This document shows positions 1,104-53,139 of a DNA stretch of 64,000 bases, one piece after another. Location of the stretch: positions 80,972,001-81,036,000 of the forward strand of contig OZ024743.1 of NCBI GenBank assembly GCA_964016885.1, read 5' to 3'. The DNA is from Eledone cirrhosa (Eukaryota). Numbering within the stretch: the stretch's first letter is position 1; every line of letters starts with the position of its first letter. The notes beneath the pieces were generated by a model. That model ran no database searches. It worked only from the letters and a program-made list of their open reading frames with translations, and was not told where the DNA came from. A program made the translations under genes and the position numbers.

Positions 1104-1107
<4 letters not shown>

Positions 1108-1285
1108 TTAATATAGAAGAGATTCTACAGGACTAGAACTGTTTCATTCATTAGAAATCATAGATTTCTAATGAATGAAACAGTTCTAGTCCTGTAGAAT
1201 CTCATCTATATTAAAACTGTTATACTCTGCTATGTATTGAGTACCTTACTTACTGTGGTTACCTCCGATTCAACCCGGAATAACG
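1104..1285 (+). mobile_element. Palindromic Penelope-type pLTR remnant, family A (hairpin plus tail) in (TA)n
   Basis: Inverted repeat 1104-1218 contains the hammerhead 3' half GAAA-CAG-ttctagtc-CTG-TA-gaa; tail shared with 2222 and 4085 copies; flanked by (TA)n. Confidence 0.75.
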
Positions 1286-1948
<663 letters not shown>

Positions 1949-2221
1949 GTATTAAAGATATTTATGGTTATGTATATAATAAAACCTTTTATGGTTATAT
2001 ATTTTTTATACAAACCCCAAATAGTGAAAGATAGTCATTCATTACTATCTTATTACCAGTAAGATAAATAGCTCAATGTAATAACATCGGTTGTTTTACA
2101 GAGCAGTTATATAGAGATTACAATAATCAAAGTTCAGTTTAAATCATTTATTTGCTTACAATTGTATAATAAATGATTTAAACTGAACTTTGATTTAATC
2201 TCTCTATATATATACATATAT

Positions 2222-2383
2222 AAGTTATTCCGGGTTGAGTAGGAGGTAACCACAGTAAGTAAAGTATTCAATACGCAGCAGAGTATAACAGTTTTAATAT
2301 AGAAGAGCTTCTACAGGACTAGAACTGTTTAATTCGTGAGAAATCATCAGGAAGCTCCTGATGATTTCTCACGAATGAAACAG
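2222..2383 (-). mobile_element. Family A palindromic Penelope-type remnant
   Basis: Reverse-oriented copy of the 1104-1285 element; right arm cut at the start of a MITE. Confidence 0.75.
2306..2356 (-). ncRNA. Minimal type I hammerhead ribozyme motif (one core substitution)
   Basis: Minus strand AGCUUC-CUGAUGA-uUUCucacGAAu-UAAA-CAG-uucuaguc-CUG-UA-GAAGCU; 6-bp stem I, GUA site; G12 reads U here but GAAA in the opposite arm and the 1104 copy. Confidence 0.75.
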
Positions 2384-2637
2384 CGCGTGCAAGACTATAC
2401 AGTCCAGACAACTCTAAGAGAATCTAAAGCGACCGTCCAGCTACACGCGGTAGGGAGATGTCTCAGCGTATTTAGGGCAGTGTTTAAGGAAAAGGAATCC
2501 TGATCTCTTTGACGGTGTCTGCCCTTTCTAGCAGCTCGTCCCTCAGATGCCACTGTGACATCTCTCTGCCGCGTGTAGCTGGCGGTCGCTTTACATTCTC
2601 TTAGAGTTGCCTGGAATGTATAATCTTGCACGCGCTG
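2381..2637. mobile_element. MITE-like element with ~55-bp terminal inverted repeats
   Basis: cagcgcgtgcaagactatacagtccagacaactctaagagaatctaaagcgaccg mirrored at the right end; flanks atgaaa/atgaac. Confidence 0.75.
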
Positions 2638-3143
2638 ATGAACCATAGGCTATTCCATTTCAGTCAACAACGTCCTGGCGAAACAGATCTCTTTAGATTT
2701 GTACGCGTGTGTTATATAGTTATAGAGGTGCGTATATACATTTTAATTTATATTTTTAATTATTGTGTGTCTACCCTGCCTTCCATATATATATATATAG
2801 AGAGAGAGAAACAGACCTACATACATATAATTTCATAAACGTTAAATTACCATTGAATAGCTTTGTCTGTGGAGAGAGGGAGAGAAAGAAAGAGAGGGAG
2901 AGAGAGAGAGGGAGAGAGTGAGAGAGGGAGAGGGACGGAAAGAGAGGGAGAGAGAGAGAGAGACTTATAAAAGAGAGAACGGAAGAGAAACTAAGAAAGA
3001 AAGATAGATAGAAAGATAGAGGGAGAGAGAGGGAGAGAAACAGAGATTCAGTTAAAGAACGAGTCAAAGAAAAAGCGAGAGAAATTGAAATAAAGAGAAA
3101 TATAGAGGGGGGGGGACATAGTGATAGAGTGAAGGAGTGAGAG

Positions 3144-3211
<68 letters not shown>

Positions 3212-3635
3212 TGTGTGTGTGTGTGTGTAAGTACTCAGCACAGTAACAAGCTTCCATCGTCATTAATGCTGACACGAAATCGACCAGTACTTCTATTTTG
3301 CCACACCCAATTTCCAGTCGAAGTTTACTTTGATGTTTCATCCTATGTGTATATCTTCAGGGCTATTCCCCCACCACTTGAAAATACAATTAGACACAGA
3401 CACGAGGATATCAAATATGTATATGTTGTTATTATGTCATTCATAAACTCAGTCTTTGTCTCTCACACAAATCTCTTTCACATTTTTCGTATTTTACGCG
3501 AATACATTCACACACATACAACATATACTTGTGTATACACACACACACACATATACACAAATATATATATGTATATATACACAAATATGTACACACACAC
3601 ACACACACATATATAAATATATATATATATATATT

Positions 3636-3822
3636 ATATAGAGTCGGGACCCGAAGGCTGAGCCCTTACCGTTTCAACAGCTAGTTTCCGACTGCAACTA
3701 CCAGTTGAAACGGCAAAAGGCCCAGACGTCGAGGTCCCGACTCTATAGTCTAACCATACTCTACTACCCCAGGTATCGAGTACTCTGTTCAGTAATGGTC
3801 TAACCAGTTTCAAACTGAATCC
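3636..3822 (+). mobile_element. Divergent family B palindromic element
   Basis: tatagagtcgggacc...ggtcccgactctata inverted repeat, GAAACGGC...GTC, and tail actctactaccccaggtatcgagtactctg. Confidence 0.65.
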
Positions 3823-4084: not shown

Positions 4085-4290
4085 ATATTTAATATAGAAA
4101 GGCTACTACTGGACTAGAACTGTTTCATTCGGGAGAAGTCATCATTGGCTTCCTGATGATTTCTCCTGAATGAAGCAATTCTAGTCCTGTAGAAACCTTT
4201 CTATATTAAATATTTAAATATTTATACTCTGCTTTGTATTGAGTACCTTACTTACTGTGGTTACCTCCGATTGGACCCGGGATAAACTTA
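4085..4290 (+). mobile_element. Family A palindromic remnant with decayed hammerhead (4147-4197)
   Basis: ggcttc-CTGATGA-tttctcctgaat-GAAG-caattctagtcctg-TA-gaaacc, inverted left arm, family A tail. Confidence 0.75.
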
Positions 4291-7870: not shown

Positions 7871-8274
7871 GGGGAAACGACTTCTCTATTCTGTCAGCCG
7901 AGGCCGTGGAGCTGCCAGCACGTGGGACCCCATTGGCTCATAATAGTGAAAGATGCGCAGGGCAAGGGAGATGGAGGTGATGGTCAGTGGGAGGTTGGTT
8001 CCTCTGTGTTCGGACATGGTGTACATGTGTGTGTATGTTTACATCATTCTTCACAGTGAATAAATCTGAAACTGATTCTATTACATACAAATACATGTTC
8101 AATCAGTTCATTGTAGATTTAGTTTGGAAGGTATTAATCCATTACCAGTGTTTCACATAGAATATGTAAGTAGGTATGCGTGTGTGTGTCTATGTGTGTA
8201 AGTCTATACACATATGAATATATATATGCATATATATATATACATATGTATATATATATGTGTATATATATATA

Positions 8275-8591
8275 TAGGAAAAAGTATGACCCCGACGGCA
8301 GAGCTCAAGCCGTTTCGACGGCTATTTATGGACTGAATAGCCGTCGAAACGGCTTGAGCTCTGCCGTCGGGGTCATACTTTTTCCTATATATATATATAC
8401 ATATATATATATAGGAAAAAGTATGACCCCGACGGCAGAGCTCAAGCCGTTTCGACGGCTATTTCTGGACTGAATAGCCGTCGAAACGGCTTGAGCTCCG
8501 CCGTCGGGGTCATACTTTTTCCTACTACCCTAAGTATTGAGTTATCTGGTGCATTATGGTCCATCTGGTTCCTTACCACAATTCCTTCGTT
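8275..8591 (+). mobile_element. Two tandem family B hairpins (8275-8387, 8412-8524) plus 3' tail
   Basis: ~52-bp near-perfect inverted arms with a 9-nt loop; arms carry GAAA-CGGC-ttgagctct-GCCG-TC-ggggtc; (TA)n flanks. Confidence 0.85.
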
Positions 8592-9285
8592 ATATATATA
8601 TATATTATGGAATACTGTTGGCTTTTTGCTACAATGTTTTCTATACCTTTCATTTATATATATATATATATATACGTGTGTGTGTGTATATATATATGAA
8701 TGTTTGTGAGTATATGTCTGTAGGTGTGCATGCAAGTGTGTGTGTGTGTGTGTATGTGTATGTGTGTGTATGTGTGTATGTATGTATGCGTATGTGCATA
8801 TGTGTGTGTGTGCGTGTACGTGTGTGTGTGTGTGTGTGTGTATGTGTGTGTGTGTATGTGTATGTATGTATGTGTGTGAGTGTGTGAGTGTGTGAGGGTG
8901 TGTGTATGTGTGTGTGTGTGTGAGTGCATACGTGATGATGTATTGGGATCAATGGCCAATGGAGAAGGATTGGAAAGAAAGTGATAGAGTTGAGTAAGAA
9001 GGTGAATGAGGGGGGGGGAGGTGAAGCAGAGGCGGTGATGTTAGGTGGGGGGAGAGGGGGAGAAAGTGTGTCAGAGATTGTAAGATGGGGAGTGGGAGAG
9101 GGGAGAGAGTGAGAGGGAAGGAGGAGAGTGATAGAGAAAGGGAGGGAGAATATTACAATAAAATACGAGAAGACGTATCAGTGAAAGAAAAAGTAATAAG
9201 CCGCCAGATCAATCAATATATCCATATATCAATCTATCTTGCAATCAACCAATCAATCAGTCATCGATCCATCTATCTATCTCAG

Positions 9286-10540: not shown

Positions 10541-10754
10541 TAACGAAGGAAGTGTGGTAAGTAACCAGGTGGACAATAACGCACCAAAGTACTCGATACT
10601 GGGTAGTAGAGTGGGTAATAGGAAAAGAGTCAGGACCCCGACGGCTGAGCTCCGGTCGTTTCGACAGCTAGGTAGGTCTGAACTAATGTGGTAGTTGAGA
10701 CCTACCTGTCGAAACAGTCGGAGCTCAGTCGTCGGGGTCCTGACTCTTTTCCTA
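10541..10754 (-). mobile_element. Family B palindromic element (different loop)
   Basis: Reverse tail plus inverted arms ggaaaagagtcaggaccccgac...gtcggggtcctgactcttttcc. Confidence 0.8.
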
Positions 10755-11115
10755 TATATATATGTTTGCGATGTATTCCAATGATTTGATCAGATAAACA
10801 CTGTAATTAAGGTCGAGTGACGTAACTTCTAACGATCAGCGGTTTTTAGACTCATCTGATTAATGAAACAATTGTTAATACTGTAAGTGAGCCATTTTTG
10901 TACAGTCCACCATGTTATTCTTCATTCTTTTGCTATTATTACTATAAGAACCACCTGCATAGGAATTCTCTTAAACTGGCCACCTAGCTAAGGAAACTTC
11001 TTGTTGAGTCAAACAACCTTAAAACTATCCTCAACAGAAAGTACTCACAACCTCTAGCTGGATTACCTTAAACGATACCTTGTTATCCTATATATATATT
11101 ATCTATCTATCTATA

Positions 11116-18603: not shown

Positions 18604-18644
18604 AGAGTATTGAAGTTTGCTTGAAGCATTGTGGAATAATAAGA

Positions 18645-18900
18645 TATATTTTCTTTAGGCCGTTTTCGAAGCCTCAACAATGCAGATGGGTAATTCTCCG
18701 GGTAACAAGATCCGGTGGTGAAGAGAGAGATGTAAGTGAATGTAGAATGAGATGTATAGTGTGTAGAAGAACGTTCTTCTACACACTATACATCTCATTC
18801 TACATTCACTTACATCTCTCTCTTCACCACCGGATCTTGTTACCTGGAGAATTACCCATCTGCATTGTTGAGGCTTCGAAAACGGCCTAAAGAAAATATA
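18645..18900. repeat. 256-bp near-perfect spacerless palindrome
   Basis: 128-bp arms centred on gaacgttc, one visible mismatch. Confidence 0.9.
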
Positions 18901-18997
<97 letters not shown>

Positions 18998-19039: not shown

Positions 19040-22000
19040 TTCTTCTGGTTTTATAATTTCACAAAGTTTTAACAATAGAGAGAGAGTCGGTTTCTAACAT
19101 AGACACATCTCATTGGAATTTACACATTAACTAGGTAGATATGTATGTATGCATGCATGTGTAGATATGGATGTTATTGTATGTGTGCATGTGTATATGC
19201 TTTGTATCTGTAAATGTGTATATGCAGTTATTAGATGCAAAATGTTTGGAATGTTTTACATATTTTTACTGTTCCATTAATGAATTGTACTTGTAGTTTC
19301 CTAACTAGTTGTGTTCTTTCTGTTCCTGTGAAGCCTAGCTTCTCAAGATTTGTATTGAGGCAGTTACTAACATGTCCCAGTGTCCCAATAATCACAGGCA
19401 TAAATCTGAAGGTGTAATCAGGGTGGAGTATCTGCAGATTTCCCATCAGTTCTGCATAAATATTCTCCTTTTCACTAATCTTTGATATTATATTGGCATC
19501 TGCTGGGCAGCTAATTTCCACTACTGTGCATGTTTTCTTCTCCCTGTCCTATATCATAATATCTGGTCTGTTATGCCTGCATTTTATTGGGGTTTTTACT
19601 GGAACATTCCACCAGTACTCTTTCATATTATGTACATGGATGTCTTCCATATTGTTGTAGCTTTTAATGTGTTTATTATCGGGGCTATCTTTTTTACGAA
19701 CTGCATTGTACAGTGTTTTGGCCACTACATCATGCCTCATAGGTAGATAGTACCGCGATGACATCTTTGGACAGCTGCTGATGACATGGGTGATATCCTC
19801 GATGTTAGTTCTGCAGAGTCTGCACTTGTTATCACATCTAGGTGTTTTGCCTGCATCCCTATCTCTTTTGTGAATCAGGTATTTCGTGCTAATCTCTTGT
19901 TCTTGGATTGCAAAAGCGTATCCTTCAAAGTGGGAGCCAATATAGCGGTTGTTGGTCCAAGATAGCCTACTTTCCTTATCTATAATACTCTCACTCTGGA
20001 GCTTCCTGGCAACATATCCATGCATGATTTTTTGCTGATAGGCATGCAGTTTTTCATCCATGGATTCACTGCGATACTGCTGAGCGACCTTCCTGGGAGT
20101 GAGTTTTTGATTATCACACAGGGAATATCTCTCGAGGAGTTCCTTCCCAACTCTCATGATCTTATCTGTTTCATGCAGATAGACTTGTTCGAGAAGCGGG
20201 CTCCTACGCTTCGACGTTCGTAGCTGTTGTCGGAGAGATATGATGCGACACTCAAATGTTGTCTGGACTGATGTTAGGCCTCTGCCTCCCTTCTTACGTT
20301 TCAAGTAAAGGCGGTCTATGTCACTGTTGATGTGGAAGTTGCCAGTGTTGTTCAGTATTTTTCGAGTTCCAACATCAACTGCTCGGATTTCGTCTATCGT
20401 CCAATTGAGTATTCCAAACGTTGGTGTTAGGACAGGCACAGCAAACACATTGTGAGCCACTGTTTTGTTTTGCGCAGAGAGTTCCGATGACCAGTTCTTT
20501 CTCAATCGGGTGTAGTATTCCCTGGTTACGCGTTCTTTATTACAGATACCATTATAGGATATGTTCTCATCTCTCCCCAGGTATCTGTAGCAGTCCTCAT
20601 CAGATATCGGTGAAACAGTTAGACCATTGATGACAATGTTGCTAGATTGGGTTGTTGTTTTTCCCCGCTTTACAGTCATGTATGAGCATTTATCTTGGCC
20701 AAACTCCATTCCTATATCCTTTGAGAACGTTGTAACCAGGTCAAGATTTTTCTTCATCCCATCCATGTTCTTGCATAGAGTTTCAGATCATCCACAAAGA
20801 AATTATGGGTTAGGTTCGTATTTCTGTCCCCCTGTGAGCCAATGATGTATCCCTCACATTTCTTGAGCAGAAAGGACAAGGGGTTTAATGACAAATATGA
20901 ACAATATCACAGAGAGACTGTCCCCCTGAAATGTACCCCTGCAATATTTTATTTTATCAGTGAAAATAGAGTCCTCCCTCTCTGTCTTTAACCTTAGGAT
21001 AGTAGCCCAAGAAGAAGACAGCTTCTCTATGGCTCTGACAATAATGTCTGCGACTTTAGCAAGTTTGAGGGCCTCTATCATCCAAGAGTGGGGAACAGAA
21101 TCGAAAGCTTTCCTGTAGTCCAGCCAGACTGTAGTCATATTCCTCCTAAGTTGTCGCACCTCCGACATCGCAGTTTTGTTGATTAGTAGTTGGTCAGCAC
21201 ATCCCCAAACCCTTTTCTTTCCAGCTGCTTGTTCATCTGTGATGATGTTATTATTTTCACAGTGATCTTGGAGGAATAGGTTCAGGCAGGCTGTATACAT
21301 CTTATACATCAGGTTCTGGCATGCAATGGGTCAGTAGTTTTTTGCCAAGTGGGTGTCTTTGTTCTTGGGGACCAGTGATGTTTGTGCTAATGTCAACCAT
21401 TCTGGCATAAGTGTATTTCCCTTAAGAACTTGTTGGTAGAGGTCAGCAAGATACCTCCGATAGAATATTAGTTTTTTGTACCAGTAGCCGACAATCATGT
21501 CTCTTCCTGGTGTTTTCTTATCTTGGAGTTTTCCTATCACAGTCTCAAGGGTACCCCTCACTTATTTCGTATGTTTTTGTTGTCGTGTAGGAGCAATAGT
21601 TCTTTCGGATTTCTCTTAGCCACACTGCATCTTGGTTGAAATTCTTCTTTTCACCCCTTATTTTTCTCCAAAAGGAATCTATATCTTTCAGTGACACTTA
21701 TTATTTTGCCCTTCATATCTCTATAGACTGATGTTTTGTTTCGTCTGAATCTGTTATTAAGCATTTTTCTCTCATCTACCTTCTTCAGGTATCGGCGTTT
21801 TTCGCTAACAGCTCTGAATTCTTGTTTGAGGGTGATCAGCTTATATTGGAGAGTTCTGGTTATACCAAACATCGTCTCTATTTTATTTTTCACTCTTTGT
21901 TGGTGAGGAGTGAGGTTTTTTTGTGTTTGTTTGCATGTACGGAGCATTGTCATATGTCCTATGTTTTTTCGTAGGTCAGCACTCTTTTTTTTCTATTTCA

Positions 22001-23617: not shown

Positions 23618-24375
23618 ATATGAAAAATGGTGTGCTGCGTTGTTGCAAATGAGATACATATGAATAAAATTAAGGCAAGAAGACAGGACTGTCCGTCATC
23701 AGTGATCTTCCAGCCATCATCGGTATTTCTTCGCATTAAAGACCATATACCTCCGGCTGGTGCGAGCAATAACTAAAAAAAGTTATTGGGACAAAAATAA
23801 TTGGGTGGAGAAAGCGAGACATGTAAACAAACAGAGATGGTAAGGCAACGGAAAGAGAGGAAGATGAGAGACAAGTCCGTGATATCTGTGAACTTAAGTT
23901 CGAGCAAATCATGGACTAGGAGAAAAAGACCCGTACAGACCTTGTGAAATGTGAGCGAGAAAAGGATCTCACACCGATCAGGAAGTGAGAGAGGGGAGTA
24001 GTAGAGAGTGAGTGAATGAAAGTGTGGGGAAGAGGCCAACCGAGAGAGGGTGACTGGTAGAGGGGGTGAATGAAGGTTAGAGATACAAGGAGGGAGAAAG
24101 AGGATAGCAGTAAGAAAGAAACACTGATCACAGCGGAGGGAAACATATAAATGAAAAATGGCGTGCGGCGTTGTTGCAAACGGGATACATATGAATAAAA
24201 TTAGAGCCCATTTGCAACAACGCAGAACGCCATTTTTCATTTATATTTTCCCCTCCGCTGTGACCAGTGTTTCTTTCTTACTGCTATCCTCTTTCTCTCT
24301 CCTTGTATCTCTTACCTTCATTCACCCCCTCTGCCAGTCACCCTCTCTCGGCTGGCCTCTTCCCCACACTTTCAC
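23618..24375 (-). mobile_element. Penelope-type pLTR arrangement (direct plus inverted partial repeats)
   Basis: Direct repeat 23620-23672 / 24151-24203; inverted repeat 24017-24184 / 24207-24374; minus-strand gaagatca-CTGATGA-cggacagtcc-tgtcttc lacking GAAA. Confidence 0.65.
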
Positions 24376-24565: not shown

Positions 24566-24569
<4 letters not shown>

Positions 24570-24755
24570 AAAAAGTATGACCCCGACGGCAGAGCTCAAG
24601 TCGTTTCGATGGCTATTTCTGGACAGAAATAGCCGTCGAAACGACTTGAGCTCTGCAGTCGGGGGGTCATACATTTTCCTATTCCCCACTCTACTACCCT
24701 ATTGAGTACTCTGGTGTGTTATGGTCCATCTGGTTCCTTACCACAATTCCTTTAT
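24566..24755 (+). mobile_element. Family B hairpin element
   Basis: Same arms, same centre (tatttctggacagaaata) and same tail as the 8412 copy. Confidence 0.85.
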
Positions 24756-24959
24756 TATATATATATATATATGTAAATTGCGCAATATTTTTTCAACCGT
24801 TCAACACATTGACAGAGGGGTATACAGTCTGGGTGAAAAATGCTGATTGCTCCTCAAAGCCAGTGTTGAACGAACAGGTGAGGATCTGTTACCGGCAAGG
24901 CACTGTTTCTAATCGGGCTCGTTTGTTTACAAACGAATCGACCATTATTATTAAAGTTC

Positions 24960-27075: not shown

Positions 27076-27343
27076 AATTAACCATAGTTCTACATGTTTC
27101 ATGTAGTTTTACTAAACCCAAGTTTTTTAGTGGAAGTAAGAAACTAAAAAGACAAGACCAACATCAAAGAACTGTAAATATTAAATTATAGATAAAACCA
27201 GATTCTAACACATGTTGTGTACCTAAAGACTTTTATGTTTAATATAGAAATGGCTTCTACAGGACTAGAATTGTTTCATTCAAAAGAAATCGCCAGGAGG
27301 CTGTTATGTAAAAGAATTCTAAAAGCGAATCACGTGATACAGA

Positions 27344-27384
<41 letters not shown>

Positions 27385-27385
<1 letters not shown>

Positions 27386-27563
27386 GAACATGTATGATCC
27401 CGACGGCAGAGCTCAAGCCGTTTCGACGGCTATTTCTGGACAGAAATAGCCGTCGAAACGGCTTGAGCTCTGCCGTCAGGGTCATACATTTTCCTATTAC
27501 CCTAAGTATTGAGTACTCTGGTGCGTTATGGTCCATCTGCTTCCTTACCACAACCTCTTCGTT
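27385..27563 (+). mobile_element. Family B hairpin element
   Basis: Same arms, centre and tail as the 24566 copy. Confidence 0.85.
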
Positions 27564-27875
27564 ATATATATATATATATGGAAAAGAATGAAACGAAATT
27601 TCATTTCTCACTTTTAGTACGGTTGATACCTAAATATAAGTATGTATACGTACATACATATATGTGTACAGACGCACAGTAGTATGTATATATATACATA
27701 CATGCACACATATATATATATATGTACGTATGCGTTTAACGAACATTTATTATAATGTTCGGTTTGTTTGTAAACAAACAGCCCGAATTACGCCGTACAG
27801 TGCTCGGCAACCATCGTCGCCCTTTTTGTTCAACACTGACAGGAACGATGTACTAGTTTCAAGCTTATTAGCTAA

Positions 27876-28772: not shown

Positions 28773-29165
28773 TAATAATAAGCTTGAAATAGCCGTCGAA
28801 ACGGCTTGAACTCTGCCGTCGGGGTCATACTTTTTCCTATATATATATATAATACATTATAAAGAAAGAAGAAACATTAGATATAATTAATAAGATATAC
28901 CATACCCAAATTCCTACATTAATCCTCGACTACGTAGTTTCGTGGCATATTATGCAAAAACACTACATCATAGAGATATAGTAATTTTTGTGAGGTTTGC
29001 CGACTTGAGTAACCGTTGAAGTGTAGTGACTGCTGGAAAGCTATCATTACTCATACTTCTCGCCATATTAGACATCTCTTCTACGCTCGCTGTTTCGAAA
29101 ATATTCTTACTTGACATTACAGTCGCTAAGTTTATAGCTTCTAATTTGAATGGAAAAAGACGGGT

Positions 29166-29237
29166 GATGTGTTGGTGTAAATGGTAGCACAGTGGTCTGG
29201 ATAACCAAAGATGTGGGTTCGACTCCCATGTACGTCA
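29166..29237 (+). pseudogene. tRNA-like cloverleaf (anticodon GGA, short variable arm); pseudo-tRNA or SINE head
   Basis: Acceptor GATGTGT/GTACGTC, D arm GTGT/GCAC, anticodon arm TGGT-ctGGAta-ACCA, T arm GTGGG-ttcgact-CCCAT, downstream TTTTT. Confidence 0.6.
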
Positions 29238-30390: not shown

Positions 30391-30572
30391 TGTTCATGTA
30401 AATAATGAACAGGAGAGGTGACAGTACGCAACATTAGCTAAGTCTGACTCCCATTGAATGGTTTCGATTTAGCACTATTTATCCGAATACAAATACTTGG
30501 GCATACGTATAGAGACACCAGGGTAGCAGTGTGGTTTTCGCCGGACACAGCACGGCCATCCAAATATTCACA

Positions 30573-30935
30573 AAGGTACAAGACCCCGACGGCTGAGCTC
30601 CGACAGTTTCGTCAGCTACCTCCGAACTAAAGCGCCAGTATTCGAACGGCGGGAATCTAGCTGAACTTATCAAGGGCTACAGTCCATATATGGGCAGACA
30701 GTCAAAATAAAAAAAAAAGTTTTCGTTCTGCCCATATATGGACTGTAGCCCTTGATAAGTTCAGTTAGATTCCCACCGTTCGAATACTGGAGCTTTAGTT
30801 CGGATGTTGCTGTCGAAACTGTCGGAGCTCAGCCGTCGGGGTCTTGTACCTTTTCATATTATCCACTCTACTACCTCAGGCATCGTCTACACTGGTGGGT
30901 TATGGTCCACATGGTTTTGTACCACACCCTATCAG
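30573..30935. mobile_element. Long family B relative: ~125-bp inverted arms, each with a complete U3-A8 hammerhead layout
   Basis: gccc-TTGATAA-GTtCAGCTA...TAGCTGAC-GAAA-ctgtcggagctcagccg-TC-gggg on minus (30582-30677) and mirrored on plus (30748-30843); family B-like tail. Confidence 0.75.
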
Positions 30936-31035
<100 letters not shown>

Positions 31036-31639
31036 TTATGTAGATATGTATTTATGTAGGTATGTATTTATGTATGTATGCATTTATGTATGTATGTATT
31101 TATGTATGTATGTATTTATGTATGTATGTATTTATGTAGGTATGTATTTATGTATGTATGTATTTATGTAGGTATGTATTTATGTAGGTATGTATTTATG
31201 TAGGTATATTACACAAGAGAACACCATACGAGAAGAAACGAACGATGTATATTAATTGAAAGCGAGAAATCTCACAATAACCTAGAGAGGAATTTTAAAA
31301 TTTAAAATCTACATAATGAATGTGAAACATTTGAAATGTTGACAAATCAGGAAACTATAGGACAGCTGCTTAATAGTACAGCAGTCCTGAGTTGGAGTGA
31401 GGGAGGATGGGGTGAAGGTAGGGGAAGTGGGGAAAGAGAGGGGGGACTGTGGAAAGAGGGAGAGGACGCGGTGGGGTAGGGGGACAGGAGAATGGGGGTG
31501 GGGTCTAGAAAAGCTTCATGGAATAAAGTTATATGTAAAAATCAGTGGTAGAAGGTCTTATTAAAACGACATGCTTCGGTGGAGAAATTTGTCGATTTAT
31601 ACGCATAAATAAACAAACACACACAAACACTGACACACA

Positions 31640-34600
31640 TACACATATATATAGACATACACATATTTATATAGACATACATATATATATAGACATACAC
31701 ATGTATATAGACATACACATATATATAGACATACACATATATATAGACATACAGATATATGGACATACACAGATATATAGACATACACATATATATAGTC
31801 ATACACATATATATAGACATACATATATATATAGACATACATAAATATATATAGACATACATATATATATAGACATACATATATATAGACATACATATAT
31901 ATAGACATACACATATATATAGACATACACATATATATAGACATACACATATATATAGAACATACATATATATATATAGACATACACATATATATAGACA
32001 TACATATATATATATAGACATACATATATATATAGACATACACATATATATAGATGTACACATATATATAGACATACATATATATATAGACATACATATA
32101 TATATATATATATAGACATACACATATATATAGACATACAAATATATAGTGATACACATATATATATACATACACATATATATAGACATACACATATATA
32201 TAAACATACACATATATATAGACATACACATATATATAGACATACATGTATATATAGACATACATATATATATAGACATATATATATATATAGACATACA
32301 CACATATATATTTTTATAGACATACACATATATATAGACATACATATATATATAGACATACACATATATATAGATATACATATATACATGGACATACACA
32401 TATATAGACATACATATATATATAAATAGACATACACATATATATATATAGACATACACATATATATAGACATACATATATATATATAGACATACATATA
32501 TATATAGACATACACATATATATAGACATACACATATATATAGACATACACATATATATATAGACATACACACATATATATAGACATACCTATATATATA
32601 GACATACATATATATAGACATACAAATATATATAGACATACACATATATATAGACATACACACCTATATATAGACATACATATATATATATATATAGACA
32701 TAGACATATATATAGACATACACATATATATAGACATACACATATATATAGACATACACATATATATAGACATAGACATATATATAGACATACACATATA
32801 TAGAGACATACATATATATATATAGACATACACATATATATTGACATACACATATATATAGACATACACATATATATAGACATACATATATATATATAGA
32901 GACATACACATATCTATAGACATACACATATATAGTCATATACATATATATAGACATACATATACACATGGACATACACATATATATAGACATACATATA
33001 TATATATAGACATACATATATATATAGACATACATATATAGACATACACATATATATAGACATACATATATATAGACATACACATATATATAGACATACA
33101 CATATATACAGACATGCACATACATATAGACATACATATATATATATATATACATACACATATATAGACATACCTATACATATAGACATACACATATATA
33201 TAGACATACTTATATATATATATAGACATACACATATATATATAGACATACACATATATATAGAGAGATACACATATATATAGACATACATATATATATA
33301 GGCATACACATATATATATATAGACATATACACATATATATAGACATACATATATATATAGACATACATATATATATATAGACATACATATATATATATA
33401 TAGACATACACATATATATATAGACATACATATATATATATAAAGACATACACATATATATATAGACATACCCATATATATATAGACATACGCATATATA
33501 TATATAGACATACACATATATAGAGACATACCCATATATATATAGACATACACATATATATAGACATACATATATATAGACATACACATATATATATATA
33601 GACATACACACATATATATAGACATACATATATATATATAGATATACACATATATATAGACATACATACATAGACATACACATATATATAGACATACACA
33701 TATATATAGACATACATACATAGACATACACATATATATAGACATACACATATATATAGACATACACATATATATATATAGATATACATATATATATAGA
33801 CATACATATATATATAGACATACACATATATATAGACATACATATATATAGACATACACATATATATATATAGACATACACACATATATATAGACATACA
33901 TATATATATATAGATATACACATATATATAGACATACATACGTAGACATACACATATATATAGACATACACATATATATAGACATACACATATATATATA
34001 TAGATATACATATATATATAGACATACATATATATATAGACATACACATATATATAGATATACATATATATATAGACATACACATATATATATATAGACA
34101 TACACACATATATATATATAGACATACACATATATATAGACATACACATATATAAAGACATACACATATATAGTCATACATATACATATAGACATACACA
34201 TGTATAGTCATACATATATATATAGACATACACATGTATAGAGACATAGACATACATATAGACATACATATATATATATATAGACATACATATATATATA
34301 GACATACATATATATATATATATAGACATACACATATATATAGAAATACACATACATAGTCATACACATATATATAGGCATACATATATACATGGACATA
34401 CACATATATATAGACATACATATATATATATAGACATACATATACATATAGACATACACATATATATAGACATACATATATATATATATAGACATACACA
34501 TATATATAGACATACACATATATATAGACATACACATATATATATAGACATACACACATATATATAGACATACATATATATATAGACATACACATATATA

Positions 34601-35015
34601 TAGACATACATATATATATAGACATACACATATATATAGACATACACATATATATAGACATACACATATATATAGACATATATATTTATATATAGACATA
34701 CACACATATATATAGACATACATATATATATATAGACATACACACATATATATAGACATACATATATATATATATATAGACATACATACATATATATAGA
34801 CATACACATATATAGAGATACACATATATATAGACATACACATATATATAGATATACATATATATATAGACATACACATATATATAGATATACATATATA
34901 TATATAGACATACATATATATATAGACATACATATATATATAGACATACACATATATATATAGACATACATATATATATAGACATACATATATATAGACA
35001 TACACATATATATAG

Positions 35016-35052
<37 letters not shown>

Positions 35053-35215
35053 TACACATATATATTGACATACACATATATATAGACATACACATATATA
35101 TATATAGATATACACATATATATAGACATACACATATATATAGACATACATATATATATATATATATAGATATATATATATATAGACATACACATATATA
35201 TATATAGATATACAG
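31640..35215. repeat. 3.6-kb minisatellite, agacatac(ac)atatatat units
   Basis: Visible; explains the [11 protein letters not shown] ORFs. Confidence 0.95.
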
Positions 35216-35319
35216 ATACAGATGGACAGACTGATATATATAAAGTCAGACAAAAGACAGACAGATAGACTGAGGGATAGATAGAGAAACAGATAAACAT
35301 ATAGATAGACAGGTACACA

Positions 35320-37126: not shown

Positions 37127-40100
37127 TTCTTCTGGTTTTACAATTTCACAAAGTTTTCCCGATAGAGAGAGAGTCGGTTTCTAACATAGACACAAGACTT
37201 TCTCATTGGAATTTACACAACATCAACTAGGTAGATATGTTTGCATGTCTGCATAAATGTGTAGATATGAATGTTATTGTATGTGTAGATGTGTATGTTT
37301 TGAGTTGTATGTGTGAATGTGTATATGCAGTTATTAGATGCAAATTTTTTGGAATGTTTTACATATTTTTACTGTTCCATTAATGGATTGTATTTGTAAT
37401 TTCCTAACTAGTTGTGTTCTTTCTGTTCCTGTGAAGCCTAGCTTCTCAAGATTTGTATTGAGGCAGTTACTAACATGTCCCAGTGTCCCAATAATCACAG
37501 GCATAAATCTGAAGGTGTAATCAGGGTGGAGTATCTGCAGATTTCCCATCAGTTCTGCATAAATATTCTCCTTTTCACTAATCTTTGATATTATATTGGC
37601 ATCTGCTGGGCAGCTAATTTCCACTACTGTGCATGCTTTCTTCTCCCTGTCCCATATCATTATATCTGGTCTTTAATGCCTGCATTTTATTGGGGTTTTT
37701 ACTGGAACATTCCACCAGTAATCTTTCATATTATGTACATGGATGTCTTCTTCATTGCTGTATATTTTAATGTGTTTATTATCGGGGCTATCTTTTTTAC
37801 GAACTGCATTGTACAGTGTTTTGGCCACTACATCATGCCTCATAGGTAGATAGTACCGCGATGACATCTTTGGACAACTGCTGATGACATGGGTGATATC
37901 CTCGATGTTAGTTCTGCAGAGTCTGCACTTGTTATCACATCTAGGTGTTTTGCCTGCATCCCTATCTCTTTTGTGAATCAGGTATTTCGTATTAATCTCC
38001 TGTTCCTGGATTGCAAAAGCGTATCCTTCAAAGTGGGAGCCAATATAGCGGTTGTTGGTCCAAGATAGGCTACTTTCCTCATCTATATTACTCTCACTCT
38101 GGAGCTTCCTGGCAACATATCCATGCATGATTATTTGCTGATAGGCATGCAGTTTTTCATCCATGGATTCACTGCGATACTGCTGAGCGACTTCCCTGGG
38201 TGTAAGTTTTTGATTATCACACAGGGACTATCTCTCGAGGAGTTCCTTCCGAACTCTCGTGATCTTATCAATGTTGCTAGATTGGGTTGTTGTTTTTCCC
38301 CGCTTTACAGACACGTATGAGTATTTATCTTGGCAAAACTCCATTCCTATATCATGTGAGAACGTTGTAACCAGGTCAAGATTTTTCTTCATCCCATCCA
38401 TGTTCTTGGCATAGAGTTTCAGATCGTCCACAAAGAAATTATGGGTTAGGTTCGTATTTCTGTCCTCCTGTGAGCCAATGATGTATCCCTCACATTTCTT
38501 GAGCAGAAAGGACAAGGGGTTTAATGACAAGATGAATAATATCACAGAGAGACTGTCCCCTTGAAATATACGCCTGCAATATTTTATTTTATCAGTGAAA
38601 ATAGAGTCCTCCCTCTGTCTTTAACCTTAGGATAGTAGCCCAGATGAAGACAGCCTCTCTATGGCTCTGACAATAATGTCTGGGACTTTAGCAAGTTGGA
38701 GGCCCAAGAGTGGGGAAGAGAATCGAAAGCTTTCCTGTAGTCCAGCCAGACTGTAGCCATATTCCTCCTAAGTTGTCGCACCTCCGACATCGCAGTTTTG
38801 TTGATTAGGAGATGTTCAGCACATCCCCAAACCCCTTTCTTTCCAGCTGCTTGTTCATCTGTGATGATGTTATTATTTTCACAGTGATCTTGGAGGAATA
38901 GATTCAGGCAGGCTGTATACATCTTATAAATCAGGTTCTGGCATGCAATGGGTCGGTAGTTTTTTGCCAAGTGCGTGTCTTTGTTCTTGGGGACCAGTAA
39001 TGTTTGTGCTAATGTCAACACTTCTGGTATAAGAACTTGTTGGTAGAGGTCAACAAGATACCTCCGATAGAATATCAGTTCTTTGTACCAGTAGCCGATA
39101 ATCATGTCTCTTCCTCGTCTTTTCTTATCTTGGAGTTTTCCTATCACAGTCTCAAGGGTACCCTCACATATTTCGTGTGTTTTTGTTGTAGTGTAGGAGC
39201 AATAGTTCTTTCGGATTTCTCTTAGCCACACTGCATCCTGGTCGAAATTCTTCTTTTCACCCCATATTTTGCTCCCAAAGTAATCTATGTCTTTCTGAGA
39301 TGGGGCCTCAGTGACACTTATTATTTTGCCCTTCATATCTCTATAAACTGATATTTGGTTTCGTCTGAATCTTTTATTAGGCACTTTTCTCTCATCTACT
39401 TTCTTCAGGTATCGGCGTTTTTCGCTAACAGCTCTCAATTCTTGTTTGAGGGTGATCAGCTTATATTGGAGAGTTCTGGTTCTACTGTTACCAAACATCG
39501 TCTCTATTTTATTTTTCACTCTTTGTTGGTGAGGAGTGAGGTTTTTTTGTGTTTGTTTGCATGTAAGGAGCATTGTCACATATCCTAAGTTTTTTCGTAG
39601 GTCAGCAATCTTTTTTTCTATTTTAGTTATATATGATGGTATTTTTGGTGGTGTTCTGTTCTCGTTAATATCTCTGCTATCACCAAGATAATGCTTCACT
39701 GTCGTTGCTAGGGCATATAAACAGGCGTTGATTTGCCAAAATGTTGGGGTTTTATCCGTCGTAAATATTCATCCCCTATTTCGTCAATAACACATTATTT
39801 TTTTTTTTTTTTTTATTAAAGATTGTCGTTTTAATACGTTCAGCAAGAGTGATATTTATACATGAGTTAATTTCACTCTGGAAGATTTCGTTGTGGGAAA
39901 TTTTCAATTGTTTATACTTTTGATTATTATCATTATCGATAGTATTTTCCACAACAGTCGAGGAAGACTCGGATGGTACACGTGGTGTCAAGTTTCTTCG
40001 ATTATTATTATTATTTCTTCGATTATTATTATTATCGATAGTGTTTTCCCCAGCATTCGGGGTAGACTTAGATGGTACAGGTGGTGTTAAGTTTCTTACA

Positions 40101-40733
40101 GGCATAGTTGTTTCAAGACGCTGTTCGACCTGACTGCTAGGAAGTCTAGTAGCATGGCGACCTGTAGCACGTGTTGTTGATAACATGTTTGTTGTGGGGG
40201 ACTTACAATTAATAATATTTATCTTATTTTTACGTTCAACAAACGTCGCTTGTTGGCGTAATTGTTTTGCTGTGAAATAATTTAGCTCTGGGTGCATTTC
40301 GTCCCAGTGTAGCTTCATTCTATTCATATAACCAATGGAGGGATTGTTTTTTGCCATTTTATAACAATTAAATAAATCATTATTAAGTTCGCAACTCCAA
40401 GAGAAATACGATTTATAATTTCGGTTTCTTCTGTAGCTACAACTGAATAAAGTTTGATAACCTTCCTTGTTATTTGTATTCGATACTTCCTTAATTTTTT
40501 TGTTGATGTTATGTTCAGCCATGCTGTTTGTAGCAAATCCTTGTAAAATGAATTATGTATTTAGTCGGATATCTCTACGAATTCGAATAAAAGGTGTCTT
40601 CAGAAGGGATAGTTAGAAGAATAACCAGTTATTCAACCTGGCTGTAGTTGTGGCATTACTGTCGGAGATAGTATTCATCTTAAATTTAATAAATAGTCTC
40701 CCACGCCAAAATATGCGACTGATCGCGTTGATT
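37127..40733 (-). mobile_element. R4/Dong-clade retrotransposon, copy 2 (both ends present, ~470-bp internal deletion at ~38270)
   Basis: High similarity to copy 1; ORF pieces 40522 to 37334 with the same RT, CCHC and RLE motifs. Confidence 0.92.
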
Positions 40734-41298: not shown

Positions 41299-43315
41299 TA
41301 TTTCAGGGAGACAGTCTCTCTGTGATATTATTCATCCTGTCATTAAACCCCTTGTCCTTTCTGCTCAAGAAATGTGAAGGATACATCATTGGCTCACAAG
41401 AAGACAGAAATACGAACCTAACCCATAATTTCTTTGCGGACGATCTGAAACTCTATGCCAAGAAAATGGATGGGATGAAGAAAAATCTTGACCTGGTTAC
41501 GTTCTCAAAGGATATAGGAATGGAGTTTGGCCAAGATAAATGCTCATATATGACTAAAGCGGGGAAAAACAACAACCCAATCTAGCAATATTGTTATCAA
41601 TGGCCTAAATGTTTCACCGATATCTGATGAGGACTGCTACAGATACCTGGGGATAGATGAAAACACATTCTATAATGGTATCTATAATAACGAACGAGTA
41701 ACCAGGGAACACTACACCCGATTAAGAAAGATCTGGTCATCGGAACTCTCTGCGCAAAACAAAACAGTGGCTCAAAATGTGTTTGCTGTGCCTGTCCTAA
41801 CACCAACGTTTGGAATACTCAATTGGACGATAGACGAAATCCGAGCAATTGATGTTAGAACTCGAAAAATACTGAACAACACCGGAAACTTCCACTTCAA
41901 CAGTGACATAGACCGCCTTTACTTGAAACGTAAGCAGGGAGGCAGAGGCCTAACATCAGTCCAGACAACATTTGAATGTCGTATCATATCTCTCCGACAA
42001 AATCTACGAACGTCGAGGCGTAGTAACGCGTCTCTCGAGCAAGTCTATCTGCATGAAACAGATAAGATCATGAGAGTTGGGAAGGAACTCCTCCAGAGAT
42101 GTTCCCTGTGTGCTAATCAAAAATTCACACCCAGGGAAGTCGCTCAGCAGTATCGCAGTGAATCCATGGATGAAAAACTGGATGCTTATCAGCAAAAAAT
42201 CATGCATGGATATGTTGCCAGGAAGCTCCAGAATGAGAGTAATATAGATCCGGAAAGTAGTTTATTTTGGACCAACAACCGCTATTTGGCTCCCACTTTG
42301 AAGGATACGCTTTTGCAATCCAAGAACAGGAGATTAACACGAAATACCTGATTCACAAAAGAGATAGGGATGCAGGCAAAACACCTAGATGTGATAACAA
42401 GTGCAGACTCTGCAGAATTAACATCGAGGATATCACCCATGTCATCAGCAGTTGTCCAAAGATGTCATCGCGGTACTATCTACCTATGAGGCATGATGTA
42501 GTGGCCAAAGCACTGAACAATGCAGTTTGTAAAAAAGATAGCCCCGATAATAAACACATTAAAAGCTACAGCAATATGGAAGACATCCATATACATAATA
42601 TGAAAGAGTACTGGTGGAATGTTCCAGTAAAAACCCCAATAAAATGCAGGCATAACAGACCAGATATAATGATATGGGTCAGGGGAAAGAAAGCATGCAC
42701 AGTAGTGGAAATTAGCTTCCCAGCAGATGCCAATATAATATCATAGTTTAGCGAAAAGGAGGATATTTATGCAGAACTGCTGAGAAATCTGCAGATATTC
42801 CAACTTGATTACACCTTCAGATTTATGCCTGTGATTATTGGGGCACTGGGGTGTTTTGCCTGCATCCCATACTTACATATATACACACAGATATACATAT
42901 ATACGTACATACAAACATACATACATATACATGTGATTATCGGGGCACTGGGGTATGTTAGTAACTGCCTCAATACAAATCTTGAGAAGCTTGGCTTCAG
43001 AGGAACAGAAAGAACACAACTAGTTAGGAAATTACAAGTACAATCAATTAATGGAACAGTAAAAATATGTAAAACATTCCAAACATTTTGCATCTAATAA
43101 CTGCATATACACATGTACAGATACACATGCACACATACAACTCAAAACATCCACATCCACACATACAATAAAATCCTATCTACACATGCATGCATGCATA
43201 TATAATCTACCTAGTTGATGTTGTGTAAATTCCAATGAGAGAATCTTGTGTCTATGTTAGAAACCGACTCTCTCTCTATTGGGAAAAAATTTGTAAAATT
43301 ATATAACCAGAAGAA
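41299..43315 (+). mobile_element. R4/Dong-clade retrotransposon, copy 3 (5'-truncated within RT)
   Basis: Begins at the FQG(D)SLS motif, includes FADDLKLY, CCHC, RLE and the same 3' UTR ending ccagaagaa-catac. Confidence 0.92.
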
Positions 43316-48924: not shown

Positions 48925-49739
48925 CTCAGTAAATAATAAGATCATTTTAAAGGTGTATACGATATAGTCAAGTGTAATGAATATCATAAATTAAAAATAC
49001 TTCTGAAAGTGGAATTTTGGCGATGTCTGCAACTAGAAAATAATTCTGTTTTAAGATTAATAGAGTTTTGACAGTTAATTATATAAAAATTTCCTCGATA
49101 CACAAGTTACAGAATCTTGAGAAAGCCATATTTCGGTATGCAGGTGCTTTCGAAATCGTTTCCCAGGATATTGAATAGTCTATATTGTTGTCTTTTAAAT
49201 TCCAAATTAAATGTGAAAATGAAGTGGAAGATTTTTTTATCGGATCTAGTAAATGTGTTTTTATGGTTATAACAGCGTTCTTTGAATTGTGTAGAAGTGG
49301 CACCAATATAGTTAAATATTTTGTCTCTAGTTTTAACTGTGCATTTAAAATTACGTTTTTGTCTAAGCAATTATTTTGTAACGGAAAGTTTGATTTAATT
49401 GTACAGTTACATTTTCTGGAGTTGTTGTTATTCGGAACGGTAGTATATATATATCTATTAGAAAAGAGAAGTGAGGTTCTATACAAAACAGTGGATATAG
49501 AGAAAAGATGAAGTTGGTAATAGCACGGGAGATATATTTAAGGGTCTGTTTATTTTTTTGATTCGTCAAAGTGACATTATTGAAATATAAAATAAAAATA
49601 TATATAATATAGAGGTTTACATATACATAAACTAGACAGAGCCGTAGATATATATATATATGTGTGTTTTTGGCAACCATTCACGGTGTGGCTCAATGAC
49701 GAATTAATTCATTAAATAATCAACAATCAGAGCAATATA

Positions 49740-50758
49740 TAAGAAAGTAAGTCCATAGAATCATTTGATAAAATATATACACTATTTCATCTCCCAATCA
49801 GCATAATCAACCACATAAAAAATCAATTAAACGAGGCTATAAGTTTAAAATGTACCTATGAAGAAACAATAGATAAATAAATGATAGCTATTTGATCCAC
49901 GATCCACTGCCACAGAAGATTTACCATAGTATTTCTAATAGCCCGTAGAAATTGACTAGACATATAGTTAACCATACACAATTAGGTACGAAATCAAAGT
50001 TAGAAGAAAAAAATGTACATAAACATACCAAAATCCTGTTTCTACCCCCGGGGGTTTCATTCGTTTTTTGGAAATATCCGATCATGGATAAATCAACGAG
50101 TTTCCAAATCATCAGGAAACAAACTCAATTGGACAAAGATTTTTCTTAAATGATCCCCGCCAGAAACGAATTCAAAATGGCTAAGAATTATCACATAACC
50201 AGTTGTCAAGTCAGAAAGCTTGTGATTGGTGCCTACGGCGAGTAGGCTGGTTGCTCGCCGTAGTCACCAATCACAAGCTTTCTGACTTGACCACTGGCCA
50301 TCTGACAATTCTTAGCCATTTTGAATTCGTTTCTGGCGGGGATCATTTAAGAAAAATCTTTGTCCAATTGAGTTTGTTTCCTGATGATTTGGAAATTCGT
50401 TGATTTATCCATGATCGGATATTTCCAAAAAGCGAATAAATCCTCCGGGGGTAGAAACAGGATTTTGGTATGTTTATATACATTTTTCCTTCTAACTTTG
50501 ATTTCGTACCCAATTGTGCATGGTTAACTATATGTCTAGTCAATTTCTACGGGCTATTAGAAATACTAGGTAAATCTTCTGTGGCTGTAGATCTCGGATA
50601 AAATAGCTATCATTTATTTATCTATTGTTTCTTCATAGGTACATTTTAAACTTATAGCCTCGTTGAATTGATTTTTTATGTGTGTGGTTGATTATGCTGA
50701 TTGGGAGAAGAAATACTGTATATATTTTATCAAATGATTCTATGGACTTACTTTCTTA
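49740..50758. mobile_element. ~1-kb foldback element (~500-bp inverted arms, short loop)
   Basis: taagaaagtaagtccatagaatc...gattctatggacttactttctta; centre ctacggcgag-taggctggttg-ctcgccgtag. Confidence 0.85.
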
Positions 50759-50777
50759 CTTTCTATATATATATATA

Positions 50778-50943
50778 TAACGAAGGAAATGTGGCAAGGA
50801 ACCAGATGGACCATAACGCACCAAAGTACTCAATACTTAGGTGAGTAGAGTGGGTAATAGGAACGACGGCTGAGCATTTTCATTTAGTCCAGAATTAGCC
50901 GTCGAAACGGCTTGAGCTCAGCCGTCGGGGTCCTACTCGTTCC

Positions 50944-50945
<2 letters not shown>
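50778..50945 (-). mobile_element. Family B hairpin element, internally deleted
   Basis: Reverse tail plus one complete arm. Confidence 0.8.
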
Positions 50946-51273: not shown

Positions 51274-51403
51274 ATAGCCGTCGAAACGGCTTAAGCTCGG
51301 CCGTCGCGGTAATACTTTTTCCTATTACCCACTCTACTACCCTAAGTATTGAGTACTTTGGTGCGTTATGGTCCATCCGGTTCCTTACCACATTTCCTTT
51401 GTT
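51274..51403 (+). mobile_element. Family B element, right arm plus tail only
   Basis: atagccgtcgaaacggc...gccgtc plus tail. Confidence 0.8.
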
Positions 51404-51467
51404 ATATATATATATACATATATATATACTACAGACAGAAATCCATGTGGAATGTATATATGTGTAT

Positions 51468-52848: not shown

Positions 52849-53139
52849 AGTTTTTCTATTTTAGAAATAGACAAAAACACTTGTAGCGGGGAGAGGGTTT
52901 CGGTTAACCCTGCTTCAATTATTTACAGTAGGTAAAGGACCCTTAAATGCCGAAGGTGTTTAGTAGGGGGTGCTCCTGCGGCTCAGTACACCAGAATTCT
53001 CCACTGCTATGAACTCGACCCTAATCTGTCGGAGAGTGACCGATATTTGCAGAGTTTACCCTCCTCGGTCCGATGTGCAGCGGAGCTAGGATTTAGACAT
53101 TGACTGCACCAGGTTGTCACTGGAGAAATTCTGAGGGAG

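Follow-up and report, generated by a model that had tools for sequence, protein, structure and literature searches.

The window analysed here, 64,000 nucleotides of the Eledone cirrhosa genome (contig OZ024743.1, 80,972,001 to 81,036,000), carries four short hairpins of 113-116 nt set in (TA)n, at 8275-8387, 8412-8524, 24566-24681 and 27383-27496, which match by BLAST within the window down to E 1e-68 and are referred to as family B. These hairpins, three partial copies (28787, 50778 and 51274) and three relatives (3636, 10541 and 30573) are present as the original prediction described; its claim that all four hairpins bear a tail stands for those at 8412, 24566 and 27385, which are followed by 68-80 nt of tail, and fails for 8275, which has none. 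The upstream (TA)n target lies at 8249-8274, with more TA runs at 8388-8411 and 8593-8606. The inverted, tailless left arm (8412-8471, minus strand) spans element positions +60 to 0, the right arm (8472-8524, plus strand) spans about +7 to +60 and ends at the first terminus (site 1, CCTA), and the tail (8525-8592, plus strand) spans site 1 to site 2 (+61 to +140), about 12 nt being missing in this copy. Position 0 denotes the A of the Inr-like TTAGTC (or TCAGTC) where arms stop. Within the right arm, the 3' half of a type I hammerhead (8483-8511, plus strand) comprises GAAA, helix III, the GUC cleavage triplet at 8503-8505 and the 3' strand of helix I. The tailless hairpin at 8275-8387 has a junction identical to that of copy 8412, the two hairpins repeating with a 137-bp period and 96% matches; since hairpins without any tail make up only 2 of 129 scored, it is likely, judged from the sequence, a local tandem duplicate of copy 8412.

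The remaining family members in the window vary in completeness. The plus-strand hairpin-plus-tail copies at 24566-24757 and 27383-27564 share the centre CTGGAC/AGAAAT, the former with a private variant present in both arms. A lone tailless arm (+6 to +60) occupies 28787-28839 (plus strand); at 50778-50945 (minus strand) a minus-strand tailed arm, mostly lost, is joined to a tailless arm that extends ~10 nt past position 0; and at 51275-51404 (plus strand) an arm from +10 plus tail stands without an inverted partner. The older relatives are a tailed copy at 30572-30930 (plus strand), whose ~140-nt arms contain a whole hammerhead (core TTGATAA, helix II, GAAAC), a hairpin plus tail at 10541-10755 (minus strand) with its centre close to the homologous TTAGTT, and a more diverged hairpin plus tail at 3637-3820 (plus strand). 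Other repeats share the window: long fold-back palindromes outside the assigned families (18620-18905, 24017-24374 and 2381-2637); a decayed Hydra-like GIY-YIG fragment (49079-49537, minus strand), adjoined by a palindrome with ~500-bp arms of 94% complementarity (49740-50758); three copies of a non-LTR retrotransposon with RT, CCHC motif and HNRPD (19376-21330, 37479-40552 and 41554-42850), presumably of the restriction-like-endonuclease type; and long minisatellite arrays of 18-, 30- and about 24-bp units (31637-35220, 53131-54851 and 61643-62527) that yield spurious open frames. A tRNA-like match at 29166-29237 (plus strand; 47.1 bits, over the Rfam gathering score) may be a tRNA gene or a SINE head.

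Together, the hairpin arm and its tail make up the last ~140 nt of an autonomous Penelope-like element (PLE) of the Hydra clade, 3.5 kb in length. Copies extended upstream of the arm are rare (1,696 exact matches to the extended pattern) and run through a ~1.1-kb 3' UTR to an RT-GIY-YIG frame, while the tail is joined to the 5' UTR of that frame at 392 exact junctions, full elements having the tail, then the remainder of the 5' UTR, then the ORF. This continuity of arm, tail and frame identifies family B as the last 140 nt of the pLTR, with its three landmarks at position 0, site 1 (+60) and site 2 (+140). Penelope origin, originally predicted, is thereby borne out, and the autonomous ORF sharing the tail that the prediction proposed to seek was found. 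One tandem array has units of 3,542-3,543 bp, two compared being 99.9 and 100% alike, with an intact 719-aa frame starting at +232, counted from the short-arm stop. The search returned 521 homologues. Pfam gave no match over threshold on six fragments of the frame, with a subthreshold GIY-YIG match (E 0.069) on one fragment. Motifs read by eye, i.e. RWR, DKT, CNCPDRSIC (CxCx5C), CNLC (CxxC) and CKH (CxH), point to the Hydra clade, as do RT motifs and EN that align by eye with Hydra proteins; the published clade criteria, in the available part of the description, are CxxC and CxH around E and N and no CCHH (PMC8557442). Like the C-terminal EN+ PLEs of that clade as described there (Craig et al. 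2021), the element has one frame of ~710-720 aa with RT before GIY-YIG, RW(K/R), DKT, a CxCx5C linker, CxxC, CxH, (TA)n targets and a pLTR hammerhead. It exceeds the length of less than 3 kb given for most members. Judged by eye from protein and hammerhead, it is a new family of this known clade, distinct from Hydra-1_Obim of Octopus bimaculoides; the latter is listed without a pLTR in the portion of that paper available, whereas pLTR, arrays and inverted copies are plain here (PMC8557442).

Both the insertion into (TA)n characteristic of the Hydra clade and the traits of a PLE insertion unit, i.e. pLTR, partial tandems, inverted 5'-truncated copy and one-end tail, are found in the element. 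Very young full-unit arrays occur at L411/L412 (contig C1, 91.47-91.49 Mb), L413/L414 and L415-L418, and at the head of one young array a 55-bp segment of the ORF is repeated about 50 times. Mini-tandems with ~200-260-bp units, running from position 0 to near the start codon, were observed at L383/L384 (C1), L422/L423 (C27), L387, L389, L390, L392, L420, L421 and L424; twice a junction is repeated inside one locus. Several successive jumps on a short piece of RNA could account for them, as could a small circle.

The predicted fold of long copies is that of a whole type I hammerhead, in which a YUGANAA core is combined with helix III and an extended helix II, pairing being retained in 95% of 400 cells. 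By sequence these copies appear to be genuine type I hammerheads, with core YUGANRA / GAAA / UH and three helices. Three pairs of helix II have changed on both sides, a count that reflects a single split between old and young families and is matched by 273 of 500 shuffles. Core position 7 varies while 4-6, 8 and 9 are constant, and the 46 long-copy cores have either U3-A8 (35) or C3 with A8 (11), the former being a PLE hammerhead variant recorded in the accessible text of PMC4209133. A canonical CTGAWGA core directly upstream of the arm was rejected as a candidate: its 30 matches are almost all junction fillers, and the real core YTGANAA lies farther upstream. Rfam reported no match at gathering score in seven long loci; in the scan of the window no hammerhead appears among the 150 of 338 matches listed, which are miRNA-like chance hairpin matches and one tRNA. 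As predicted, every arm does contain the 3' half of the hammerhead (GAAAC-GGC-loop-GCC-GTC-GGGGTC). Short copies lack the 5' half and are not arranged head to tail in tandem, so that the retrozyme-like character once proposed for them does not fit. Short opposite-strand hammerhead pairs had earlier been recorded as truncated PLEs, in the accessible text of PMC4209133.

Further PLE ends of similar architecture accompany family B. Family A, unrelated to it, is another hairpin-plus-tail end (window 1105-1286, 2209-2383, 4089-4288 and about 27260-27345) with a complete canonical hammerhead whose helix I starts exactly at the arm stop, 29-30 nt after TATAAATA. Families C and D (L017, L020, L022, L013, L032, L342 and others) are hairpin-plus-tail ends with CTGATGA cores and longer arms (about 165-210 nt), for which Inr-like CACT words are a frequent stopping place; in one family D template TATATAAA lies some 30 nt upstream, and family C is without a clear TATA.

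The family is abundant and dispersed through a 3.0-Gb genome rich in microsatellites. A 34-mer of the tail has 33,622 exact genome matches, as against 0 for its reversed control, and ~10 insertions in 600 kb sampled at even steps give a rough genome estimate of 50,000. A genome search with 8412-8591 confirmed the predicted multitude of copies with unrelated flanks, the best 40 matches lying on at least 18 contigs with different flanks. No pair among 68 insertions shares both flanks, one-sided flank matches being inserts into other repeats. Read depth over the last 140 nt of the element far exceeds that over the remainder, and short-read contigs (two runs of one sample, possibly that of the assembly itself) contain joints between opposite strands at a number of centre positions and, at both termini, ends flanked by TA. 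Samples were taken as the first matches listed on contig C1 and are thus non-random; of the first 100 found by the tail, 99 tail-anchored copies were recovered; 98 of the 99 tails run into a TA-type run and 84 end at one distance. For every long copy there are about ten short hairpins. At L037, L041 and L047 a single arm has an inverted duplication of foreign or flanking DNA before it in place of a partner arm.

The hairpin centres are clustered and not fixed. The original prediction assumed the same breakpoint in dispersed copies, and already the four window hairpins show two centre types, TGGACTGAAT and TGGACAGAAAT; genome-wide, 25 different strings were counted among 32 scorable copies (those with both flanking anchors matched, 67 being dropped), two strings occurring three times each. 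Nearly all centres also differ in a by-eye reading of 18 copies of a single subfamily, and the one that recurs most is shared by the two subfamily groups and found in either orientation relative to the tail. Fillers (up to 23 nt), templated repeats and unequal arms are common, and poly(A/T) fillers lie beside position 0 in L031, L279 and L332. Because centres, fillers and orientations vary, the junction appears to be made anew, and the stop is clustered. Inheritance of a centre together with arm mismatches in fixed orientation, the mark of a non-autonomous palindrome, was not found. Nine of the 99 tail-anchored copies run through the ribozyme core. Arm ends in the remaining 90 were called automatically, some copies with internal deletions being mis-anchored: 57 right arms end at -8 to +8, 5 at +9 to +25, 18 beyond +25 and 1 farther upstream, with 9 uncalled; the corresponding numbers for left arms are 59, 10, 12, 1 and 8.

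Tails and arms follow simple rules. Among 129 hairpins with both arms scorable, 125 have one tail, two have two and two have none, many of these loci having been found via the tail so that copies with both arms tailless are under-sampled. The sequence signature of the two arms is identical in 77 of the 129 and differs by at most one change in 112, as against 15 and 31 in shuffles; in L252 the arms carry different subfamily signatures, and this copy looks chimeric. Lengths are likewise matched, a short arm having a short partner in 126 of 128 cases and a long arm a long partner in 13 of 17 (partner calls are missing for 37 long and 15 short arms, and 16 arms have no call of their own). Either arm can be the long one; e.g. 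the tailless arm is the longer in L413/414 (14 kb vs 287 nt) and in L418. A fixed-length ruler measured from the priming site was discarded, as the site-1 and site-2 arms both terminate at one position on the RNA. A search for A-to-I editing between arms gave nothing convincing, the A>G excess of tailed arms being mostly one column with an alignment offset.

Position 0 has several features of a transcription start. A TATA-like word lies at -29 to -31 in 44 of 46 long family B templates, within an AT-rich tract in which it also supplies the 5' strand of helix II. Of 36 family A arms, 28 have their end 28-33 nt past TATAAATA, and no arm ends farther upstream; the older relative and family C have Inr-like stops and no clear TATA at -30. 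In D. virilis Penelope the transcription start and promoter lie inside the pLTR, according to the available text of PMC2377424. The base preceding position 0 is, genome-wide, T in 16,029 arms, G in 5,050, C in 4,275 and A in 827, the long templates having T or C there. Origin from neither template nor partner was assigned to 17 of 30 sampled G arms and 7 of 30 C arms, which extrapolates to about 2,900 arms with untemplated G (95% interval 1,900-3,800), vs about 1,000 with C and at most 827 with A. Junction fillers are A-rich (26 A and 11 G of 57), yet G exceeds A before position 0. Six hairpins among the first 100 listed G matches have G on both arms. In family A the first 100 listed non-template matches are G in 79, T in 11 and A in 10; of 21 sampled G, 13 were called independent of the partner, several of these still being confounded. 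The partner arm could have supplied the G in 13 of 30 family B matches and at least 8 of 30 family A matches, and helix I complementarity and tail microhomology confound several more in family A. An untemplated G is taken as a copied RNA cap in L1 and SVA, in the portion of PMC4859970 available.

Template-jump junctions bear on the same point. They begin at -4 to +3 in 7 of 8 in one set and 6 of 6 in another, the latter chosen for reaching position 0 and sharing one junction with the former, and such a clustering is expected of a physical RNA end. G is found in none of the six chosen junctions and TTTT in four. The boundary is blurred over a few T, since 17 arms in the T-class sample of 30 are short yet have the template T at -1, and ~27% of arms that reach position 0 continue far upstream (12 of 30 T and 4 of 30 C in the samples). 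A cap does not account for the frequent centre TTC/TGGACT/GAA, which lacks a G and was read by eye in 13 of 30 C-class arms. Taken on these sequence patterns, position 0 is probably the capped mRNA start within the 5' pLTR.

The reading favoured here, with a probability of about 0.7, is that the hairpin-plus-tail copies are abortive "strong-stop" insertions, i.e. two cDNAs extended to the capped RNA end and joined head to head. An element protein, likely a dimer, would bind its mRNA 3' of site 2 and nick both (TA)n strands; on one RNA, one cDNA would be primed at site 1 (+60) and the other at site 2 (+140), and both would extend to the likely capped 5' end in the 5' pLTR, where host end-joining would link them head to head with trimming and fillers. 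That the two cDNAs share one RNA, and that they are then joined, we infer from the products. One tail per hairpin and matched arms fit the two-site, two-strand priming of an anole PLE, Poseidon of Anolis carolinensis (PAc), in which, in the available text of Frangieh et al. 2024, two internal RT start sites bound the tail and both strands are nicked and extended (PMC11167929). Most insertion events would finish as short hairpins. Long copies would come either from an RT template jump or from an RNA, read-through or circular, that does not begin at position 0. Short copies, which lack the RNA 3' of site 2 and half the ribozyme, would be dead on arrival and would not spread.

The original prediction took the shared breakpoint to mean that the palindrome had itself become the replicating unit. 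Transcription of palindrome plus tail and mobilization in trans as a non-autonomous unit is now very unlikely, even though short hairpins outnumber long copies ~10-fold, read depth is highest on the last 140 nt and some centres recur (two strings three times each in 32). The 25 centres among 32 copies, the presence of a recurrent centre in both subfamily groups and orientations, arms that vary together, and the absence of shared flanks on both sides among 68 insertions all argue against it; so do five jump-type mini-units, each with its own junction, and the fact that short copies lack the region 3' of site 2, RNA that in vitro proved necessary for the anole PLE (PMC11167929, available text). 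A DNA-transposon MITE, which TA flanks and inverted repeats would suggest, has an almost vanishing probability, and so has an origin by segmental duplication: the inverted repeat is not terminal, the tail lying outside it, the sequence is continuous with the RT-GIY-YIG frame, variable 5' ends go with a constant 3' end (one distance in 84 of 99 tails), and the best 40 matches are spread over at least 18 contigs with different flanks.

Two further explanations keep the PLE origin and place the stop or the joining elsewhere. A single cDNA might fold back at its 3' end and self-prime the second arm, as has been put forward for PLE palindromes (PMC3846280, in the part available). Matched arms of equal length would then come automatically, and centres such as CTG-GACT-CAG resemble small snap-back loops. 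Fold-back is nonetheless unlikely, since a tail-primed cDNA cannot yield a longer tailless arm such as those of L413/414 and L418, a site-1 cDNA is unable to copy the tail, the complete G-bearing arm is tailless in 14 of 30 sampled G matches, and fillers up to 23 nt suit end-joining. Somewhat less improbable, though still doubtful, is twin priming of the same element against a structural block, with RT stalling or the RNA being cut atop helix II and no start site involved. Position 0 does sit in the inner hairpin of the long predicted helix II, which covaries between subfamilies, the stop boundary is fuzzy, and in an older relative the stop falls at the homologous site with no clear TATA; but in family A it falls on the first base of helix I, a structural setting of another kind at equal TATA distance, and a stall predicts no extra G.

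Inverted-plus-tail PLE insertions are already known. The canonical unit, in the portions of PMC8557442 and PMC3846280 available, shows the same head-to-head inverted repeat, one-end tail and junction microhomology, with a tail of 30-40 bp as against 80 nt here, and the 3.5-kb element with its ~1.1-kb 3' UTR differs in length from Hydra clade members, mostly below 3 kb (PMC8557442). PAc resembles the present case in its two internal RT starts bounding the tail, AT-rich targets and use of both strands; it belongs to another clade, and in the text available its post-priming steps are left open and product length is not tied to a transcription start (PMC11167929). The non-LTR retrozymes of Li et al. 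2026 (10.64898/2026.07.22.740005), as far as that text was available, are likewise non-coding, PLE-derived and provided with a type I hammerhead; they are head-to-tail tandems with a complete ribozyme each, whereas the copies here are head to head with half a ribozyme. L1 twin priming, in which two primers on one RNA give an inversion, is like the scheme proposed here (PMC4859970, in part). Unlike the canonical PLE unit, about nine-tenths of tail-bearing copies here are a minimal hairpin stopping at one place, and that stop is tied to TATA/Inr spacing and an extra G. In retroviral minus-strand strong-stop synthesis, internal priming near the RNA 5' end yields a short product of fixed length. 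Neither this nor L1 twin priming is identical to the proposed events, in which the cDNAs overlap fully, start at two fixed sites and end in a product that is inserted, not transferred. The octopus genome paper reportedly names a repeat Twister. In the part of the literature covered here, no earlier account was found that ties a fixed stop to TATA/Inr spacing and a cap-like G; the short repeat itself may already be catalogued.

Penelope-like elements are the nearest retroelement relatives of telomerase, and how they come by inverted repeats and tails is described as an open question in the available portions of PMC8557442, PMC3846280 and PMC11167929. The family supplies thousands of natural products with countable rules, i.e. 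one tail, matched arms and a common stop with a G, and a very young intact element allows each step to be assayed. Clustered fold-back breakpoints are not necessarily the sign of a new non-autonomous element. If position 0 is the start, each hairpin is predicted to retain two outward-facing initiator sites without a TATA box, and, as the ribozyme contains the start site, folding and cleavage would be open to the downstream pLTR copy alone. At about even odds, these tens of thousands of hairpins may preserve in fossil form the intermediate of Penelope integration, in which a dimer would prime both target strands from two fixed sites on one capped RNA, each cDNA would run off at the cap, and most events would go no further than a strong-stop hairpin; full elements would arise only by a template jump or from read-through or circular RNA; such a scheme, if true, would cover pLTRs, tandems, inversions and tails together.
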